This document shows, one piece after another, positions 9,029 to 32,775 of a stretch of DNA of 43,070 bases; the first letter of the stretch is position 1; each line of letters starts with the position of its first letter. Location of the stretch: assembly GCA_002499525.1 (NCBI GenBank), contig DAMC01000041.1:11862-54931 (forward strand). The letters run 5' to 3'. Source of the DNA: Nitrosopumilales archaeon UBA218. GTDB lineage: Archaea; Thermoproteota; Nitrososphaeria; Nitrososphaerales; Nitrosopumilaceae. The notes under the pieces are model-generated. The model saw nothing but the letters and a program-made list of their open reading frames with translations, was not told the DNA's origin and ran no database searches. Made by a program: the position numbers and the translations under genes.

Positions 9029-9619
9029 CTAGGTTTTTGTTGCAGAGATAATTGTCACTGGATTTCTTGCTAACATCATTGTCCCAGTTTTGGTCTTTTT
9101 ACTTTTCGATATTGTAACTTGAGTGATGTCAATCTCTGAAAATCCTATTTTATTTACTATATCCAATACTGAGTAGAGTGTCTCAATTAGTATAATCCCA
9201 ATTACAATTCTAGATCCAGGTTTTAGCTTGGAATTACATAAATTTACAATATCTTTGGTATCACCACCTGTTCCACCAATGAATATTGCATCGGCCATAG
9301 GAAGTTCCATGATTTTTGCTTTGGCATCTGATAATATTACGTCCACATTTGTCAAGCCAAATTTTGAGATATTTCTTTTTGTCAGATCAACAGCTTTTGG
9401 ATCAATATCCACCGCGTAGATTTTTCCTTTTTTTCCAATTTGAAGGGCAGCTTCGATGGTGATAGAACCGCTGCCGCAACCAATGTCATAAACAATATTT
9501 TCTTCAGAGAGTCTTGCTTTACTGATTTGTATAACACGAACTTCCTCTTTTGTTATTGGAACTTCATCAGTTCTATCAAACTCTTCGTCTGGAATTCCGG
9601 GAGTCTTATAGTTCCACAT
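9029..9619 (-). CDS. cbiT: Cobalt-precorrin-6B C15-methyltransferase (decarboxylating)
   Basis: PITKEEVR, YDIGCGSGSIT, IFIGG and MLARNPVTII; part of the cobalamin cluster. Confidence 0.93.
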   Translation of the reverse strand: MWNYKTPGIPDEEFDRTDEVPITKEEVRVIQISKARLSEENIVYDIGCGSGSITIEAALQIGKKGKIYAVDIDPKAVDLTKRNISKFGLTNVDVILSDAKAKIMELPMADAIFIGGTGGDTKDIVNLCNSKLKPGSRIVIGIILIETLYSVLDIVNKIGFSEIDITQVTISKSKKTKTGTMMLARNPVTIISATKT

Positions 9620-9620
9620 T

Positions 9621-10034
9621 TTAAATTGGTTTTAGTGTAGTAACGCCTGTTGAAGGCAGATGTACTAGCGTGTATGATAGAATCCACATGAACAAATACA
9701 AGAACACGTAAGTACCTAATCCCGTAGTTACAATTTTTTTTCTATCCGAACGTGGTAAACCTATTTTGAGACCTTTACCAACTATAGCAGATCCAATAAA
9801 TACCAAAATCATAAATCCGATAGATGCCCATCTGCGTTCTTCACCCTCAATTGATTCAAACAAGAATGTGGCAATCACACCACCAATAGCTGCCATACCA
9901 ATTCTAATCCAGAAAAGTTTATCGAGTAGTTTTTTTCGTCTTTCAATTTCGTCCTGAGTATCCACTGGTGCAACATTTGGTGTATTATCATCAACCGGAT
10001 CTGTGGAATCCGGTTTTTTCTTTGGATGTTTCAA
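9621..10034 (-). CDS. Small 3-TM membrane protein, EMC6/Rab5ip-like
   Basis: Three hydrophobic segments with the pattern WIRxxxAxIGG...GLGTYVFLYLFMWILSYTL. The family call is by resemblance only. Confidence 0.55.
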   Translation of the reverse strand: MKHPKKKPDSTDPVDDNTPNVAPVDTQDEIERRKKLLDKLFWIRIGMAAIGGVIATFLFESIEGEERRWASIGFMILVFIGSAIVGKGLKIGLPRSDRKKIVTTGLGTYVFLYLFMWILSYTLVHLPSTGVTTLKPI

Positions 10035-10132
10035 TGAAATTTCTAAGGATGACTCGACTGTGTCAGGTTTAAAATGTTTGGTCGCATTCAGTTCATTAGT
10101 GAGGATATGGTTGTGGTATTTAGCGGATTGTT

Positions 10133-12061
10133 ATGGGCTTAGCTGGTATAGAACTCGCATTTTTGGTAAAAGAAATATCTGAAAGAACTGCTGGTTACTA
10201 TGTCAACAATATCTATCCGATAAATCAGAATAGTGTTCTTTTCAAGTTACATCATCCAGACAAACCAGATCTATTCTTAGTAATTTCATCTATCGGGATG
10301 TGGTTTACCGGAATTAAAATTGACGCTATTGAAGATAACAAACTGGTGAAAAGATTGCGTGATGATCTTTTACGATTAAAGATTGTCAGAATAGAGCAAA
10401 TAGGAGTAGAACGAATAGCATATCTTACATTTTCTGGATTTGATAAAGAATTTGTATTAATTTGTGAGTTTTTTGGAGATGGAAATATTATGTTATGTAA
10501 TAAAGATCTCAAAGTTCTGGCATTATTGCACTCAATTGCAGTAAGGCACCGAGAGATACGTGTTGGATCGATCTATGCTCCACCACCACAAAAAGGTCTC
10601 AACATCTTTGATATTTCATCAGAAAACTTTACAGAAATAAAATCAATCTCAACACCAATCGCAAAATGGTTTGGGAGAACGTATGGGCTGCCAACTAAAT
10701 ACGCTCAAGAAATACTGAGAATCGCCAACGTTGATTTTGATTTGGTATGTCAAAACATTACTGATCAACAGATAGAGCGGATCATTTTAGCTTCAAAGAC
10801 TCTTACAAATGACATTGTATCTGGTAATCATAATCCAGTAATTGTCAAATCCGATGATGAATTTGACGTATATCCAATCTCCTCCACCATACAAGATACT
10901 ACACAAGAACAGATCCCCAGCTTTATGGAAGGTTTAGACAAAATATTTTCCAATATTATTCTAGATAAAGGAAAGCTAGTAAAATCAGGCTCAATTGATA
11001 AGAAGATTGCCGATCTTCAATCTAAAATTGATGAACAAACTAAAGCGATTTCATTAGTTAAGGAGAAATCTGAAAAGATTTCCAGTGTAGCAAAATCTCT
11101 TTACTCTTTTTCTTCATATGGTGTATCAAGTATACTAGACTCACCAGTTGCTCAGATTCTCAAGGCAAGCAATGCTGAACTTATCAAGGATCGAGGAATT
11201 TTATTTCTTAAAATAGACGATGAGAAAATTCAGATAAATTCGGAGTCATCATTTCCAGCAATCGCTTCAACAATATTTAACGAGGCAAAAAGACAATCAT
11301 CTGCTATCGAATTAATTGAATCTCTTAAAATCAAAAATCTAAAAGAACTGGAAAAACTCAAATCTCAATCACAAGAAACTAAAAAAGCAGTTTTTTTTAC
11401 GGAATTCAAGAAAAAAGAATGGTTTGAAAGATACAGATGGTTCAACACATCTGATGGATTATTAGCCATAGGTGGCCGGGATTCATCATCAAATTCTGCA
11501 ATCATACGAAAACAGCTGACTAAAAATGATAAGGTATTTCATGCGGAGATTTTTGGTTCCCCGTTCTTTATTCTAAAAGATGTACCTGATTCTTTACCAT
11601 TTGATTCCTTAAATGAAGTTGCTCAGGCTACTGTATGCTTTAGTCGAGCTTGGAGAGAAGCAATGTATGGCATGAGTGCATATTGGATTAATCCTGAGCA
11701 AGTAAAAAAAGCAGCCCCTAGCGGACAATTTCTTTCAAGGGGCTCTTTTGTTTTAGAAGGGCATAAAAATTTCATCAAAGCACCTAATCTCAGATTAGCA
11801 GTAGGGGTACAATATCACGATGAGCGATATATCCTTACATGTGGTCCTCCAGAACCAATAAAGAAGAATTGTATTTGTTATGCAATTATTGAGCCAGGCT
11901 TGGATGAAATGACGGATTGTGCAAAAAGAGTGAGAACGGAATTCATAAAGCTTCAAGAAGATATTGCAAAACAGTTTGATATTGACGATTATGTTAGAGT
12001 ATTACCAGCAGGTGAAAGTCACATAGTAGAATCGGGCAATACCAAAGTTGAACCCGCCTAA
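10133..12061 (+). CDS. rqcH: Ribosome quality control protein Rqc2/RqcH (NEMF, NFACT family)
   Basis: NFACT-N (EQIGVERI, EFFGDGNIML), coiled coil, and NFACT-R (WFERYRWF...IGGRDSSSN...FHAEIFGSP...FSRAW). Confidence 0.9.
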   Translation: MGLAGIELAFLVKEISERTAGYYVNNIYPINQNSVLFKLHHPDKPDLFLVISSIGMWFTGIKIDAIEDNKLVKRLRDDLLRLKIVRIEQIGVERIAYLTFSGFDKEFVLICEFFGDGNIMLCNKDLKVLALLHSIAVRHREIRVGSIYAPPPQKGLNIFDISSENFTEIKSISTPIAKWFGRTYGLPTKYAQEILRIANVDFDLVCQNITDQQIERIILASKTLTNDIVSGNHNPVIVKSDDEFDVYPISSTIQDTTQEQIPSFMEGLDKIFSNIILDKGKLVKSGSIDKKIADLQSKIDEQTKAISLVKEKSEKISSVAKSLYSFSSYGVSSILDSPVAQILKASNAELIKDRGILFLKIDDEKIQINSESSFPAIASTIFNEAKRQSSAIELIESLKIKNLKELEKLKSQSQETKKAVFFTEFKKKEWFERYRWFNTSDGLLAIGGRDSSSNSAIIRKQLTKNDKVFHAEIFGSPFFILKDVPDSLPFDSLNEVAQATVCFSRAWREAMYGMSAYWINPEQVKKAAPSGQFLSRGSFVLEGHKNFIKAPNLRLAVGVQYHDERYILTCGPPEPIKKNCICYAIIEPGLDEMTDCAKRVRTEFIKLQEDIAKQFDIDDYVRVLPAGESHIVESGNTKVEPA

Positions 12062-26981: not shown

Positions 26982-27176
26982 CTAGGAAGTAACAGGTTGT
27001 TTTGCATACAACAATCCCGCAACAAAAAATATCACACCTAAGATTCCTATTAGACTTCCAACAAATTGTATAGTTTCAATCCATTCGGTATTTGTTGGTC
27101 CCCATAAAAATGCCATAAAAGCACCAACAATAACCATTGGAATTCCAACCCCAAATGATATTTGCTTTGATGCCAT
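26982..27176 (-). CDS. Small 2-TM membrane protein
   Basis: 64 aa with two hydrophobic Gly-rich helices. Confidence 0.7.
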   Translation of the reverse strand: MASKQISFGVGIPMVIVGAFMAFLWGPTNTEWIETIQFVGSLIGILGVIFFVAGLLYAKQPVTS

Positions 27177-27224: not shown

Positions 27225-28397
27225 CTAGTTGGATTTAGTCTTTGAATTTGATTTTTTATCGGTTGTCGTAGGGTCGTTTTTCTTTAAAGATTCTTGTTTT
27301 TGTTCTGTTGGTGATGGTTCACTTTGAGGTTTTTGCTCATCAGGACTAGTTTTAGTATTTTGAGAGTTTTGTTGTGATGCCAAATATGTCTCAATCTCTT
27401 TGATTATAGAGTCGAGTTTCTTAAGTTGCTTGATTTTATCGTCAGAAGATTCAGGGTCTTTAACTGAGATTAGGATTGATTTTGCCGTGTCAAACTTTGG
27501 TCTAATATTTTCATCAATTTTTGTCTCAACAAGTCCTAATCGAGTTTCTTGTTTGTTGATTTCAGAAAGAATTTTTTGATTCTTTGCATCTATGATATCC
27601 GAGTTAATAAGATAGACTTGTTTGATTTTAATAATTAACTGAGTCGAGTTTCCATTGGAGGCCAGTTCTTCCCTCGCGGTTTGTAGTTTAGAGGTTTGAT
27701 CTTCTGATAATCCTAATTCTTTGGCTTGTAATAGAACCGAATCAATTTTGGCAATATACTTACTTGTGAAAGAGGCTGCTCTCTTATTGGATTGCTCTGC
27801 GACAAGATCCTTGATAGTTGTTTGAAGGTTAACTCCCTCAGCTTTAAGTTCCGTGAATGTTCTATTGAGTGCGACCATGTTTCCGGTTGAGAGATTTGAT
27901 TTTGTAATTTGGAGCAACTTGTCAAATTTACTAAAATCTATTGGAAGTTTATTTTTGGTTGCAACTGATTTGAGAATTCCAATATTTGTTTCAAATCGTT
28001 TTAGTGCATTACCGTAATCAAATTCTGATGATTGTGGATTTGGTTGAACGGATTGAGATGATGTAATTTTTTCTGTAGATGAATCTGTAGCTTGTTCAGA
28101 GAAAAATTGGGTGATCTGTCTGAACGCATCCATAGCTGCCAAAAAGTGTTTTTTAGCAGACAAGGCATCGCCTTTCTTTACTGATTCGGTTAGCTGGTCG
28201 GTTTCTGAATCGCCTAGCGAATAAAGTGATTTAACATCATCCGTGACATAAGACATTTTATCAAGATGTGATTTCACCTGAGTTCTTGCTTGAGTAGCCA
28301 GATTCACAAATGAGTCTAATTTAGAATCAGCAAATGCTGGCACAATAATAAAACCAGCCACCAAGCCAAGTAATGCAATGGATAGTATTACTTTCAT
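27225..28397 (-). CDS. Secreted alpha-helical/coiled-coil hypothetical protein
   Basis: Signal peptide ending in AFA, amphipathic helical body and Q/S/K/P-rich tail; start overlaps the upstream stop (ATGA). Confidence 0.8.
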   Translation of the reverse strand: MKVILSIALLGLVAGFIIVPAFADSKLDSFVNLATQARTQVKSHLDKMSYVTDDVKSLYSLGDSETDQLTESVKKGDALSAKKHFLAAMDAFRQITQFFSEQATDSSTEKITSSQSVQPNPQSSEFDYGNALKRFETNIGILKSVATKNKLPIDFSKFDKLLQITKSNLSTGNMVALNRTFTELKAEGVNLQTTIKDLVAEQSNKRAASFTSKYIAKIDSVLLQAKELGLSEDQTSKLQTAREELASNGNSTQLIIKIKQVYLINSDIIDAKNQKILSEINKQETRLGLVETKIDENIRPKFDTAKSILISVKDPESSDDKIKQLKKLDSIIKEIETYLASQQNSQNTKTSPDEQKPQSEPSPTEQKQESLKKNDPTTTDKKSNSKTKSN

Positions 28398-29614
28398 GCT
28401 AAATCACCCTTTTTTCTAAGTCTGACTAGGTTTTGAAAATCCTTTTTTTCTATCTCTATTACACCCTGTCTCTCTAATCTTTTAACCGCTCTCCACATTG
28501 TAGTTCGTGGTAAAAGGAATTTTTTTCTCAAATCACGCTCAAATGCTTGTCCACCGTTTTTCTCCAAGAAGAGGACTAGCTGTTTGTCATCCTCCCTCAT
28601 TTCTTGAGTGATAATGTCATCTGATTCTGGAGATTCTGTATTGACATTCTCATTTTTATTTAGCAAAGGCGCCATTGTTTTTTTGACTGCATTTTTGGTC
28701 TTTTTTAGAAGAAGTGTCAGTGCAGATACGGCACCACCAATTGCAACAATAGAAGTAGCAATTCCAGCAATGTTATCTTTGAACCAATTTACAGGGTTAT
28801 TTTGGGAATTTACATTGTTTTCTGAAAAATTATTGATTTCTTTTTGTGCAATAGATTTTGCTTCTGAAGCAAGGGTTAGTGCATCATTGTATTTTTTATC
28901 ATCATATGCAATTGCTGCTAAATCTAATTTCTCTTGTGCCAGTTTTACATCAATTTTCTGATTAACGGCTTGCGATATTATTGATTTGGCTTCATTAATT
29001 GCATTTTGGGCGGAAAGTGCTGGACCCGAAGTAGTGAAAAAGTACTCTATCTGATTTTTTCCTTTGAGTAATGAGATTTGTTTATTGTCAATTGAATCAA
29101 TATTATCCGGATTAGTTATGTCGACCACAGTAGAATCATCTGGCATTGTAACAGTATAATCAACCTGAGGATCTACTGCAAAAGTCCAGATTTTACCTTT
29201 TTTTGAAACCAGATCGTAACTATCATAGACAATTGAGACGGAGGAAGCACCAAAAGTCTGAATCGTAAGAGCTTTGTTATCCATCTCAGATGACAAAAGT
29301 TTACCGTCCTCATCCTGGATAACTAGATTATCAATGGTTTTTCCATAAAGTGGAACCTTTAGAACAGGTTCTGATGAATCAGCACCAAGTTGTTGCGATA
29401 CGTGAGTTGTCCCGTCTGCATATATTATAAAATCAAGAGTACGGGTGAATCCATACGTTTGTGTAGGTAGTACTATTGCAAGAACAAGTCCAATAGCCAA
29501 AATAGGTGCCCTGACCATTCTAAAGAAGATATTCGAGATCCTTACAAAAATCATTGCTTCCAGGTTAGGAACGATTTCCTCTTGTGTGCAGAGTACTACC
29601 TTACGGTTATCCAT
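28394..29614 (-). CDS. Membrane-anchored winged-helix protein (exported beta domain, TM helix, cytoplasmic wHTH; COG2512-like)
   Basis: Hydrophobic signal-like segment (ILAIGLVLAIVLP), TM helix IAGIATSIVAIGGAVSALTLLL, and C-terminal EDDKQLVLFLEKNGGQAFERDLRKKFLLPRTTMWRAVKRLERQGVIEI. Alternative start at ATG 29518. Confidence 0.8.
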   Translation of the reverse strand: MDNRKVVLCTQEEIVPNLEAMIFVRISNIFFRMVRAPILAIGLVLAIVLPTQTYGFTRTLDFIIYADGTTHVSQQLGADSSEPVLKVPLYGKTIDNLVIQDEDGKLLSSEMDNKALTIQTFGASSVSIVYDSYDLVSKKGKIWTFAVDPQVDYTVTMPDDSTVVDITNPDNIDSIDNKQISLLKGKNQIEYFFTTSGPALSAQNAINEAKSIISQAVNQKIDVKLAQEKLDLAAIAYDDKKYNDALTLASEAKSIAQKEINNFSENNVNSQNNPVNWFKDNIAGIATSIVAIGGAVSALTLLLKKTKNAVKKTMAPLLNKNENVNTESPESDDIITQEMREDDKQLVLFLEKNGGQAFERDLRKKFLLPRTTMWRAVKRLERQGVIEIEKKDFQNLVRLRKKGDLA

Positions 29615-29616
29615 GT

Positions 29617-29904
29617 CTAATACCTCAAATTTAGTGTTTCAAGAATAGACTGGAATTTACGGAATTCTTGGACAAACTCGATGCCCTTTTCCGTTATTGT
29701 ATAGAGTCTGTTTTTTTCAGTTTTGACGGATTGAACCAGTCCTGCAGAAGAGAGCTTCTCACACTTGTCAATTACAGCATAGTGTGAAAGATTCGCTCTT
29801 CGAGAAATTGCAGAGACTATGGTTCCTTGTCTGCCCCCTTCCATGGTGACATTCAAGATATCTCCCATAATGCCCATTTCGGACCTGTATTGTTGTTTTG
29901 ACAT
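29617..29904 (-). CDS. Stand-alone winged-helix DNA-binding protein (HTH_45/ArnR1-like)
   Basis: YRSEMGIMGDIL...ISRRANLSH...LSSAGLV...YTITEKG pattern typical of archaeal wHTH regulators. Confidence 0.88.
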   Translation of the reverse strand: MSKQQYRSEMGIMGDILNVTMEGGRQGTIVSAISRRANLSHYAVIDKCEKLSSAGLVQSVKTEKNRLYTITEKGIEFVQEFRKFQSILETLNLRY

Positions 29905-29948
29905 GCTAAGTAATAGTTGTCAGTATAGTTTAGGGACATTTTGAAACG

Positions 29949-29975
29949 TCATAGCGGAACGCATAGCGGAACAGG
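29949..29975 (+). repeat. Direct repeat copy 1 (TCATAGCGGAACGCATAGCGGAACAGG)
   Basis: 27 bp identical to 30614-30640; 23-bp core identical to 30212-30234; internal 12-bp tandem unit. Confidence 0.95.
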
Positions 29976-29992
29976 CGTTCTGATGGTTGAAA

Positions 29993-30017
29993 CATCAAAA
30001 AATCGGATTTTTTGATG
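29993..30017. promoter_or_regulatory. Perfect 12-bp inverted repeat, candidate operator
   Basis: CATCAAAAAATC-G-GATTTTTTGATG, located between divergent genes. Confidence 0.5.
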
Positions 30018-30134
30018 CGGGGGAAAGGAAACCAATTCAGAAAAATGGTTTGGAAAATTTTGTTAATTGTGGGATTTTATCTTACTTTATCTTTATTAGT
30101 AATAAAATAGAACATTTGCTATTACAGATATAAT

Positions 30135-30608
30135 ATGTTTGAAAAATTTAAGAAGGCGGAAGAAGCCCTACAGGATGCAGGTATGTTAGAACAAGAAAAG
30201 CCCAAAATTGAAGCGGAACGCATAGCGGAACAGGTCAGTTCTGGTTCTGAGATAGGCATTGCAGACTTGATGAACAAGCGGGCTAAACTTGAGGAGGCGC
30301 TTGATTTCGTTGGATTGATGATAAAGAATCTCAAAGACAAAAGAACCAGACTAGTCAAAGAGATTGAGGATGAGTCTGTTGATATCCAGAACTTGAAGGA
30401 TAAATTGACCAAAGTCAGTGATTATATCGAGGAGGAAGGTAGAGGAATAAGAGACCTCTCAAACAAGCGGGCTTTAGTTGAAAAACAAGCGGATGAGGTT
30501 GGAGCCCTGATTGGCAACCTTAGAAGCAAACTTGCCAGTATTGACAGTGTAGTAGATGGCGAGGAGAACAAGGTCAAATCCATTAAGGAATCAAGGCAAA
30601 AAATATAG
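30135..30608 (+). CDS. Coiled-coil hypothetical protein
   Basis: Heptad-rich, E/K/L-rich 157-aa ORF; contains repeat copy 2. Confidence 0.85.
   Translation: MFEKFKKAEEALQDAGMLEQEKPKIEAERIAEQVSSGSEIGIADLMNKRAKLEEALDFVGLMIKNLKDKRTRLVKEIEDESVDIQNLKDKLTKVSDYIEEEGRGIRDLSNKRALVEKQADEVGALIGNLRSKLASIDSVVDGEENKVKSIKESRQKI
30212..30234 (+). repeat. Direct repeat copy 2 (intragenic; encodes AERIAEQ)
   Basis: AGCGGAACGCATAGCGGAACAGG is an exact match to the core of copies 1 and 3. Confidence 0.95.
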
Positions 30609-30613
30609 TCATT

Positions 30614-30640
30614 TCATAGCGGAACGCATAGCGGAACAGG
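30614..30640 (+). repeat. Direct repeat copy 3
   Basis: 27-bp exact match to copy 1, starting 6 nt after the coiled-coil gene stop, between convergent genes. Confidence 0.95.
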
Positions 30641-30671
30641 TTTTAAGATAATAAAATAGGAAATAGATACT

Positions 30672-31313
30672 TTAGAGGTATCTTGTCGAAGTCGCTGATT
30701 TAGTGCTTACAGGTGTTGATGGAAATTTGTCTCCAACAGACGCCTCAGCCACTGCAGCAGCTTCTTCTAGAATCCTATCGGATTCTTCGTTAGTGCTTTG
30801 GTCCATGCCAAATGCTCCCTCGCCTGAGAAGGATTCTGCCATTAGTCCATTTAGCATCTCTGTCATCATGCCTAATTCATGATCTGCTTCAGGCATAAAT
30901 TTGCCTAATGAAGATTTGAGACTTCTCATTAAGCCGATTGTTGGTGCTATTGTGACTACTGTGTCTCCTAGGTCATGGAATGTTGTTAATCTTAGTTCGA
31001 TTTGTTCTAGTGCCATTCTGCAATTACCTAGCATTTTTGAGACCTTACGGACCTCGGCTAGTTCATTTGCTAAAACTTTGCTAGTCTGAGTATCGTGTTT
31101 TTGGGTTGCTTGCACTATTCTTTGGAATAGATTTTGTTCTCGTTGCTTTAGTTTGGTCAGCATTCCGTCAAGTTTTGAGATTTGGTTTTGTAGGCTTCTT
31201 GTTGCCTGCTCAATTCTTGGCTTTAATGCGCCTTTAGGCTTGAGTGCTTCGCCCAATTTTTCAGAAATACTCGGTGTTGTTGGTTTGGACCAAGAGTTCT
31301 GGAAGTTTGTCAT
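30672..31313 (-). CDS. cdvB: ESCRT-III / Snf7 family protein (short CdvB paralogue)
   Basis: LANELAEVRK...ALEQIELRLTTFHDLGD, EESDRILEEA and FPSTP. Start set at ATG 31313 by alignment with the paralogue at 6031-6681. Confidence 0.9.
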   Translation of the reverse strand: MTNFQNSWSKPTTPSISEKLGEALKPKGALKPRIEQATRSLQNQISKLDGMLTKLKQREQNLFQRIVQATQKHDTQTSKVLANELAEVRKVSKMLGNCRMALEQIELRLTTFHDLGDTVVTIAPTIGLMRSLKSSLGKFMPEADHELGMMTEMLNGLMAESFSGEGAFGMDQSTNEESDRILEEAAAVAEASVGDKFPSTPVSTKSATSTRYL

Positions 31314-31440
31314 GGTAAATTTTATGTAATTCATTGAAATTGCAAGGTGTGAAATCTATTTTACTAAAAGATCTAATGGGTAACTTTGTATTTCACAGCC
31401 AAGGCTGGGATATTATAAAATAAAAAACAATTCGCCTAGT

Positions 31441-31539
31441 TTATTGGGCTAGAATGCTTTGTGGGTGCATCTTCTTTATGTGCGAGTGCACTCCATGAGA
31501 TGATGTGACTGCTTCGCCACATAATGGACATGTTTCCAT
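31441..31539 (-). CDS. 32-aa C2H2 zinc-finger microprotein
   Basis: Below the ORF-track cutoff. METCPLCGEAVTSSHGVHSHIKKMHPQSILAQ has C-x2-C-x12-H-x4-H spacing. Confidence 0.65.
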   Translation of the reverse strand: METCPLCGEAVTSSHGVHSHIKKMHPQSILAQ

Positions 31540-31863: not shown

Positions 31864-32775
31864 ATGACACAAACAGCACGAAATAGTGATCGCTGTCCTC
31901 GTTGCGCAAAAGGTGCAATGTTAACAGACGGTAGCACTGGTGAGATGTTTTGTAACACGTGTGGATTTGTTGCAACAGAACGAGTGGAAGAGGAAGGTCC
32001 AGAGTGGCGTTCTTTCTCAAAAGAAGAGGGAGAGAATCGAACTCGAACTGGTACACCGACTTCACTTGCAATGCATGATATGGGTCTAGCAACAATTATC
32101 GGTCAAGCCGATAAAGACGCATCTGGAAAACCACTGACATCTTCTATGAAGAGCACTATTGAGAGGCTCAGAACTTGGGACTCACGAAGTCAGGTTCATG
32201 AACCAGTAGATAGAAACTTCAGGCAGGCATTTTCGGAGCTCGATAGACTAAAGGACAAGTTAGCACTTTCGGATGCAGTAATAGAAAAAACTGCATACAT
32301 TTACAGAAAGGCTCTCGATAAAGGGCTTGTTCGCGGTCGATCTATTCCAGGGTTGGTCGCTGCTGCACTATATGCCGCATGTAGGAACACTGAAACTCCG
32401 AGAACCTTAACTGACGTGGCAAATGGAATCAATATCAAGCGAAAAGACGTAGCTAGATGCTATAGATTGCTTCTACGAGAACTGGATCTTAAAATGCCAG
32501 TAGTTGATCCAATCAAAGGCGTTGCAAGAATAGCAAGTATTGCGGACTTGTCTGAAAAGACTAAGAGAAAAGCACTTGAATTCTTGAAGGAAGCAAGTAG
32601 AATTGAGGTCTCGGCTGGAAAGGACCCAATGGGTTTAGCTGCTGCAGCATTGTATTTGGCATGTGTGATGCTGGGTGAGAACAAGACTCAAAAAGATATT
32701 GCACAAGCTGCGGGCGTTACAGAAGTCACCATACGAAACAGGTACAAAGGTCTCAAAGAGGCATTAAAGCTCTAA
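31864..32775 (+). CDS. tfb: Transcription initiation factor B
   Basis: Zn ribbon CPRC...CNTCG, B-reader GPEWRSF, and cyclin repeats RGRS...ALYAACR and GKDPMGLAAAALY...VTEVTIRNRYK. Confidence 0.97.
   Translation: MTQTARNSDRCPRCAKGAMLTDGSTGEMFCNTCGFVATERVEEEGPEWRSFSKEEGENRTRTGTPTSLAMHDMGLATIIGQADKDASGKPLTSSMKSTIERLRTWDSRSQVHEPVDRNFRQAFSELDRLKDKLALSDAVIEKTAYIYRKALDKGLVRGRSIPGLVAAALYAACRNTETPRTLTDVANGINIKRKDVARCYRLLLRELDLKMPVVDPIKGVARIASIADLSEKTKRKALEFLKEASRIEVSAGKDPMGLAAAALYLACVMLGENKTQKDIAQAAGVTEVTIRNRYKGLKEALKL

Follow-up and report, generated by a model that had tools for sequence, protein, structure and literature searches.

The question posed by this locus is what three identical DNA repeats are for. 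They lie in a stretch of 43,070 nucleotides from Nitrosopumilales archaeon UBA218 (assembly GCA_002499525.1, contig DAMC01000041.1, positions 11,862 to 54,931 of the forward strand), called the window here, beside a winged helix-turn-helix (wHTH) operon, a coiled-coil gene and an ESCRT-III gene. A sequence-only reading of the window had taken them for centromere-like sites of a six-gene machine joining chromosome, membrane and ESCRT-III. Our analysis points instead to a promoter element. The repeats are likely to be binding sites for the transmembrane (TM) wHTH protein encoded in the operon, TM-wHTH, rather than a centromere. This protein is probably a one-component regulator, the dimers of which would load on an inverted pair of half-sites and extend along a lattice to the core promoter of their own operon and of genes for secreted helical proteins.

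The operon lies on the minus strand. Its first gene encodes a soluble Sso10a-like wHTH protein of 95 amino acids (29617-29904; Pfam HTH_45, 1e-10), followed after a 2-nt gap by the TM-wHTH regulator (406 amino acids, 28394-29614) and, with an ATGA overlap, by SEC, a secreted all-helical protein of 390 amino acids (27225-28397) that has a signal peptide or N-terminal hydrophobic segment and no Pfam match. This arrangement, the convergent ESCRT-III gene and the C2H2 open reading frame (ORF), all described in the sequence-only reading, were confirmed from the ORFs.

The repeat is part of a promoter lattice

An identical 23-bp core occurs at 29953-29975 (copy 1, minus strand), 30212-30234 (copy 2, plus strand) and 30618-30640 (copy 3, plus strand), and 100 shuffles of the sequence gave no match. 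These are the only strong copies in the whole assembly (1.01 Mb, 71% complete), where matrix scores drop from 40 to 13 after the three. Copy 1 is the middle of a longer predicted operator lattice on the minus strand, 29933-29993, with half-sites about 9 to 13 bp apart. Read on the transcribed strand, the lattice consists of an inverted pair, GRAAY-N4-RTTYC, a second GTTCCGCT, GTTTCA and GTYCCT, and runs directly into a weak TATA-like box (29924-29932, minus strand). This box, 20 to 28 bp ahead of the start codon (some 21 bp from the ATG in the lattice layout), keeps its position in 42 aligned promoters. Copies 2 and 3 each consist of a direct half-site pair alone, the former within the coiled-coil gene at codons 27-33 and the latter between the converging coiled-coil and ESCRT-III stops. 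The three copies are identical, as had been claimed; they do not simply bracket the coiled-coil gene, since copy 2 is inside its coding sequence.

Across the family, the lattice keeps its spacing and its place. Among 149 distinct promoters, half-sites occur at -13, 0 and +12 in 99% and the inverted one at +22 in 66%; the strict GRAAY-N4-RTTYC pair is present in 97 of 143. Where the small-wHTH start was held in the locus (9 genome and 27 metagenome loci lacked it), the promoter site was 48 to 49 bp from that start in all 71 genome loci and all 53 metagenome loci, whereas its distance to the coiled-coil gene ranged from 212 to 4,430 bp across the same 71 genome loci. The conserved copy goes with the wHTH promoter. 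Family-wide conservation is limited to this promoter copy; the other two were seen in Nitrosotenuis-like loci only. Of the 30 closest loci, 20 have copy 2 and 7 have a copy 3 that passes the score cut (more have a degenerate one); neither was found in the 50 other loci. Copy 2 is under selection at the DNA level: both of its alanine codons are GCG in 24 of 25 sequences, whereas the commonest base at 34 four-fold sites of the coiled-coil core has a mean frequency of 0.60, although one of these sites likewise reached 0.96.

The lattice is lost together with the wHTH cassette, as no site was found in the four cassette-less loci scanned, and four genomes without the coiled-coil gene keep both cassette and lattice. 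In the assembly, a lattice plus TATA box before a credible gene was found only at the wHTH promoter. The palindrome alone occurs 42 times, against 16 to 19 in mononucleotide shuffles, with just 5 occurrences outside ORFs. RNA contigs from four runs of one study, which carry no information on strand or level, cover the cassette, and one extends into queE. The contigs of the cassette end at 29741-29873, and its promoter would be leaderless. The contigs cover neither the zinc-finger gene nor most of the divergent intergenic region, which is no sign of absence.

Several other features were seen around the lattice. A 10-bp A/T-tract inverted repeat followed by a GCGGGGG box lies at 29993-30023 of the window, and a GCG(G/C)G box stands 62 to 64 bp from the first half-site in 67 of the 149 promoters. 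In L147, L167, L177 and other Nitrosopumilus-type loci, a second, weaker lattice plus TATA box lies about 250 bp from the wHTH start; it precedes an inserted gene, often broken, for a secreted protein of 190 to 230 amino acids between the wHTH and coiled-coil genes. The intergenic region of locus L146 holds, by eye, an apparent remnant of a TM-wHTH ectodomain and an opposite-strand wHTH-like start, suggesting a decayed inverted duplicate of the cassette. Helical phasing of copies 1 and 2 was considered for the 30 closest loci, in which spacings of about 238, 249, 260, 294, 328 and 350 bp suggested steps of about 11.2 bp; the phasing was not significant once related spacings were merged (P 0.29 to 0.43). 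A viral scan returned 121 stretches, none with a flanking half-site, and these were taken as chance matches.

The element accompanies TM-wHTH homologues in distant archaea

A profile of the TM-wHTH winged-helix (wH) domain has matches in 195 of 401 sampled Thermoproteota genomes. Three homologues from other families, with no adjoining small-wHTH gene, have the same half-sites before a TATA box upstream. The pattern GRAAY-N4-RTTYC was fixed after those three loci and before an out-of-sample test on 40 of the 98 listed nonfamily matches to the profile, picked by score and by family spread (23 families). We counted occurrences of the pattern no more than 110 bp upstream of a gene with a signal peptide, and these were found in 19 of the 40 loci, from 14 families. 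By gene, the pattern preceded 27 of 114 signal-peptide genes versus 3 of 184 other genes, mostly 42 to 85 bp from the start. Control patterns with spacers N3 or N6, with swapped halves, or reversed gave 0/40 each. A spacer of 5, which was added after the result had been seen, gave 7/40, and N4 or N5 gave 25/40. Among 40 control loci of DUF7343-type proteins, mostly with other helices, none had the site, so that site and regulator co-occur (25 of 40 test loci versus 0 of 40 controls). No small-wHTH gene was present in any of the 40 test loci. Since the element stands before secreted genes in distant loci without a small wHTH, and in none of the 40 loci with other wHTH types, TM-wHTH is the likely binder.

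Most of the distant-locus promoters share the layout of half-sites followed by a TATA box, and in one the heptamer GCGGAA/GTTCCGC forms a palindrome before a secreted gene. Many of the distant-locus targets match the SEC profile, with scores that helical composition bias can inflate. SEC itself has 455 relatives at an E value of 0.001 or below, and SEC-like genes lie near TM-wHTH in many distant loci; SEC is a predicted target, and possibly a partner, of the regulator. What the sequences show, then, is a lattice that holds a fixed position, disappears along with the cassette and, across the phylum, is present at secreted-gene promoters beside this type of regulator. The proposal that a wHTH protein binds the repeats is supported on these grounds; that it binds them as centromere-like sites is not, given the promoter-tied copy and the secreted-gene promoters elsewhere.

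TM-wHTH as a probable membrane-anchored one-component regulator

TM-wHTH is hydrophobic around residues 28 and 281 and carries its winged helix at the C terminus. Like one-component transmembrane regulators, it joins a predicted DNA-binding domain to one or more TM helices in a single protein. The structure model has a signal or anchor helix, an exported beta-sandwich (residues 56-193), a three-helix bundle (198-271), a TM helix and a cytoplasmic winged helix. In fold searches, the beta-sandwich resembled ribophorin I and the N-domains of M1/M61 peptidases (Z about 11, root mean square deviation 2.6 to 4.0 over 129 to 167 residues). The winged helix matched many MarR/ArsR regulators at a Z of about 10 and ESCRT-II Vps36 at 9.6, a tie by which fold alone leaves its role undecided. 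In the alignment, the recognition helix, PRTTMWR, belongs to a nearly invariant pattern, PRTT.WR..KRLE. Matches to MarR_2, HTH_24 and DUF7343 were weak and all under cut-off; that to DUF7343 (PF24034) reached 14.6 bits against a Pfam cut-off of 27.6, with none of 43 family genomes matching at an E value of 1e-8 or below. Homology of the three-helix insert to SEC was tried, and the comparison gave no support. A separate 88-amino-acid open frame, at G084:C1:602470-602673, matches the wH domain of the regulator alone and is a possible soluble paralogue.

In the mechanism that we propose, TM-wHTH would sense something outside the cell and would likely switch on its own operon, including SEC and the Sso10a-like protein. 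Regulator dimers would bind GRAAY-N4/5-RTTYC and extend head to tail along the lattice. Activation of a weak promoter, as by ArnR, seems a somewhat more likely effect than blocking of transcription factor B (TFB) at its recognition element (BRE): the TATA box and BRE are weak, ArnR activates from paired upstream boxes, and paralogue promoters that have no array have a stronger TATA box. It is a tentative guess that the exported beta-sandwich binds envelope polypeptides or a secreted partner and that the cue is envelope or surface-protein stress. In the Nitrosopumilaceae, the Sso10a-like gene may have joined the operon as a soluble output, and in Nitrosotenuis, the two additional sites under selection, one within the coiled-coil gene and one behind it, may be auxiliary operators that act by looping or as roadblocks.

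A number of observations weigh against this account. The last half-site covers the BRE position, which would suit a repressor. The 8-bp GTTCCGCT direct pair is largely confined to the family in which the small wHTH also occurs, and the inverted half-site is absent from copies 2 and 3. In genus g12, the half-sites have drifted and the small-wHTH helix has changed, and the TM-wHTH helix has barely changed. Of the 40 distant test loci, 15 have no N4 or N5 site, and the test loci include related genomes and are not independent. Five loci of family f48 have no site upstream of the regulator gene. Finally, no further target promoter was found in the assembly, nor with a strict pattern in five relatives, where two strict-pattern matches lie off promoters, one of them clearly intragenic; the regulon would therefore be tiny.

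The small wHTH protein

Some of the same observations favor the soluble wHTH protein as the main binder. It would then bind the GCGGAAC direct pairs, regulate its own gene and bridge the three Nitrosotenuis copies, leaving TM-wHTH to bind the flanking palindrome or nothing. The protein has profile similarity over nearly its whole length to Sso10a-2 (2e-6), Sso10a (2e-5) and AspA (9e-4); it passes the Pfam HTH_45 cut-off and, at 36.8 bits against a cut-off of 60, falls under that of NF053610 (Sso10a). AspA has a binding site upstream of the gene that encodes it (PMC5120986). The family having the small wHTH typically shows the extended direct pair, the helix is changed in g12 where the site has drifted, and copies 2 and 3 are direct pairs alone. 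However, the same half-sites occur without a small-wHTH gene in 25 of the 40 distant loci. In genome G147, the lattice positions are filled by plain GTTTCA half-sites while the small-wHTH helix is unchanged. Stand-alone paralogues of the small wHTH (30 to 61% identical), with near-identical helices, show no half-site array upstream by eye; in three of their promoters, a remnant of the last half-site stands with a stronger TATA box. We consider the small wHTH unlikely to be the main binder.

The likeness of this protein to the chromatin proteins Sso10a and Sso10a-2 (PDB 1r7j and 4hw0) lies in the nearly full-length profile match; it differs in scoring under the NCBIfam cut-off and in being encoded within a regulator operon. 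Sso10a is an abundant and nonspecific DNA-bridging dimer. In genera g8 and g14 (L071-L088), up to 10 small-wHTH matches occur, and several of the stand-alone paralogues adjoin other regulator-like genes.

The coiled-coil and ESCRT-III genes are separable neighbors

The coiled-coil protein (157 amino acids, 30135-30608, plus strand), divergent from the wHTH operon, is modeled as a disordered N terminus and a single 115-residue helix (42-156). Its gene was found in 73 of 80 family genomes, with one weak match in 70 others; it had no fold match, and an Atlas search returned its own family alone. A thaumarchaeal coiled-coil protein, arCOG08707, is encoded upstream of cdvC (PMC11188069). The protein studied here is not arCOG08707, and the genes upstream of cdvC on contig C42 encode different proteins without similarity to it. 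The ESCRT-III protein (30672-31334, minus strand, with a conserved start near 31313; Snf7 3e-7, NF041005 157 bits) matches CdvB1/B2 best, and its match to the CdvB profile stops at position 196 of 260, so that it has no CdvA-binding wH domain. Thaumarchaeal CdvB proteins also lack a wH domain (PMC11188069, PMC8970359). The CdvA-CdvB wH contact, which had been invoked as a precedent for wHTH binding to ESCRT-III, does not apply for these two reasons. A second CdvB1/2-type paralogue, 58% identical, lies 24 kb off on the same contig (window 6031-6681, minus strand), and a third, more distant one is on C53. Two CdvB1/2-like Nitrosopumilus paralogues failed to polymerize in yeast (PMC3684127).

The coiled-coil and ESCRT-III genes end less than 400 bp apart in 67 of 76 scorable loci (4 of the 80 were dropped at contig ends), and in the one RNA study, contigs bridge their 3' ends. 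A complex prediction for the two proteins scored zero, which is evidence neither way. In 8 of 80 Nitrosopumilaceae genomes, of which five are single-contig, neither the small-wHTH orthologue nor TM-wHTH was found; the coiled-coil gene is retained in five of the eight. Conversely, searches for the coiled coil came up empty in 7 of the 80, four of which have the cassette; three genomes have neither. The empty follow-up searches behind these absences ran without a positive control in the same search. Insertions of up to several kilobases part the cassette from the coiled-coil/ESCRT-III half. The block is thus conserved across the Nitrosopumilaceae, as a synteny comparison suggested in the sequence-only reading confirmed, not as a single six-gene unit; it splits into two halves that are largely independently lost. 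The coiled-coil and ESCRT-III genes are neighbors in a conserved origin-proximal block and not core parts of the system.

These data also bear on a Psp-like envelope-stress regulon, in which the regulator would, throughout the family, control the coiled-coil and ESCRT-III genes as a means of membrane repair. The selected extra sites in and after the Nitrosotenuis coiled-coil gene are in its favor, as are the adjacency of the two genes and the bridging RNA contigs. However, apart from the wHTH promoter copy, no site lies near either gene in any of the 50 loci beyond the closest 30, the search of the assembly found no lattice-plus-TATA promoter at a credible gene other than the wHTH one, and the coiled-coil/ESCRT-III pair persists where the regulator is lost. 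Such a regulon is quite improbable. The envelope-type regulon that the sequence-only reading offered as an alternative is nonetheless close to the one we favor; its members would be secreted proteins, and ESCRT-III is not a clear one.

Centromere or chromosome tether

The centromere model, in which the repeats are a centromere and the wHTHs, coiled coil and ESCRT-III form one machine linking the origin region to membrane and division site, gains from location. In all 59 genomes with both genes on one contig, the locus lies near cdc6: the coiled-coil gene is 3 to 96 kb away (median, 26 kb), within 50 kb in 54 of the 59. Each genome typically has one strong site, as a unique origin-proximal centromere would, in a location common to the whole block. 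Archaeal centromeres can be promoter-proximal repeats, such as segS and the AspA site (PMC12139799, PMC5120986), and any binder anchored in the membrane would in itself tether the locus. However, thrB, queC and other housekeeping neighbors share the origin-proximal location, the cassette and coiled coil are missing from the genomes listed above, the three copies are confined to part of one genus, and the same element is a secreted-gene promoter motif elsewhere in the phylum. Nor is there a linked ParA. In four Nitrosotenuis genomes, ParA searches gave only 40-position matches, none full-length and none near the locus; G196 has one full ParA match, far from it, and no recognizable ParB or SegB was present among the flanking ORFs examined. 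With a promoter-tied copy, separable losses and no ParA-type NTPase near the locus, the six-gene machine finds no support, and we regard it as very unlikely.

A hybrid of the two ideas is just as improbable. Here, an ancient operator would have been upgraded in the Nitrosopumilaceae to a single array of high affinity, some 26 kb away from the origin; the regulator would tether the origin region to the membrane, the Sso10a/AspA-like protein that it induces would spread from the sites or bridge them, and the coiled coil and ESCRT-III would couple the site to membrane remodeling, giving a motor-free, signal-controlled chromosome anchor. Separately, the region upstream of cdc6 (9581-10666, minus strand) on G000:C92 has an AT-rich stretch and two ORB-like boxes with G-strings, which mark the probable origin. 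The boxes differ from the repeat, and the possibility that the repeats are a second origin or origin recognition boxes (ORBs) was rejected.

Relation to known systems

Returning to the one-component regulator, proteins of this kind are common in archaea (PMC10269533). The closest parallel is ArnR/ArnR1 of Sulfolobus acidocaldarius, an archaeal membrane-bound one-component regulator that controls surface-structure genes and that binds TCGAC-N5-GTCGA inverted repeats immediately upstream of the core promoter, requires two boxes and activates (PMC6396743). The system described here differs in its site, a GRAAY-N4/5-RTTYC lattice reaching the BRE position, and in having an exported sensor, a C-terminal wHTH and secreted helical-bundle proteins as targets. 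The wHTH of ArnR is N-terminal. ToxR/ToxS and TcpP/TcpH likewise combine a DNA-binding domain, a TM helix and an outside domain with a co-encoded exported protein (PMC10269533); here the wHTH is MarR/ArsR-like, the promoter is an archaeal one with TATA and BRE, and the partner role of SEC is putative. In both the AspA-ParB-ParA system of pNOB8 and SegAB, a small DNA-binding protein is encoded with a repeat or palindrome upstream of its own gene (PMC5120986, PMC12139799). Shared with these are the weak AspA similarity of the 95-amino-acid protein (E value, 9e-4) and an origin-proximal single site; the differences are that no ParA match lies near the locus, that the cassette is dispensable in a tenth of genomes, and that its site is common to secreted-gene promoters. 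The domain order of ToxR is opposite to that of TM-wHTH, and the soluble DNA-binding output here resembles the step from ToxR to ToxT.

In a literature search that left most subscription papers and supplements outside its scope, we found no paper on the TM-wHTH family, the site or these genes (including Nmar_0028 and Nmar_0030 to Nmar_0034). Nothing relevant appeared under DUF7343, nor under COG2512 and DUF4897. The operator and its small regulon are apparently real, conserved and undescribed, the regulator is of a known kind, and a segregation module is undemonstrated. A predicted binding site, promoter layout and target class can now be given for an unstudied type of membrane-anchored regulator, one present in most Nitrosopumilaceae ammonia oxidizers among others, and a single small soluble domain with a probe of 60 bp would be enough to test the system. 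What seemed a centromere is recast as a promoter element, and chromosome positioning by a membrane-bound regulator seated near the origin becomes a testable idea.

Other genes of the locus

The named closest homologues of the locus genes are from Candidatus Nitrosotenuis. A C2H2 zinc-finger microprotein of 32 amino acids (31441-31539, minus strand; weak zf-C2H2 matches) is a patchy neighbor, with 21 distinct orthologues in the fetched loci and none in several otherwise intact ones. An Rfam search of the window gave no match. On the other side, a 64-amino-acid two-helix membrane protein (window 26982-27176, minus strand) lies behind SEC in most loci and is retained in those that have lost the cassette. 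A TFB gene (window 31864-32775, plus strand) is divergent from the zinc-finger and ESCRT-III genes, and its protein is 98 to 100% identical across six loci of the Nitrosotenuis genus. In Sulfolobus, a TFB paralogue drives division genes (10.64898/2026.09.06.749720).

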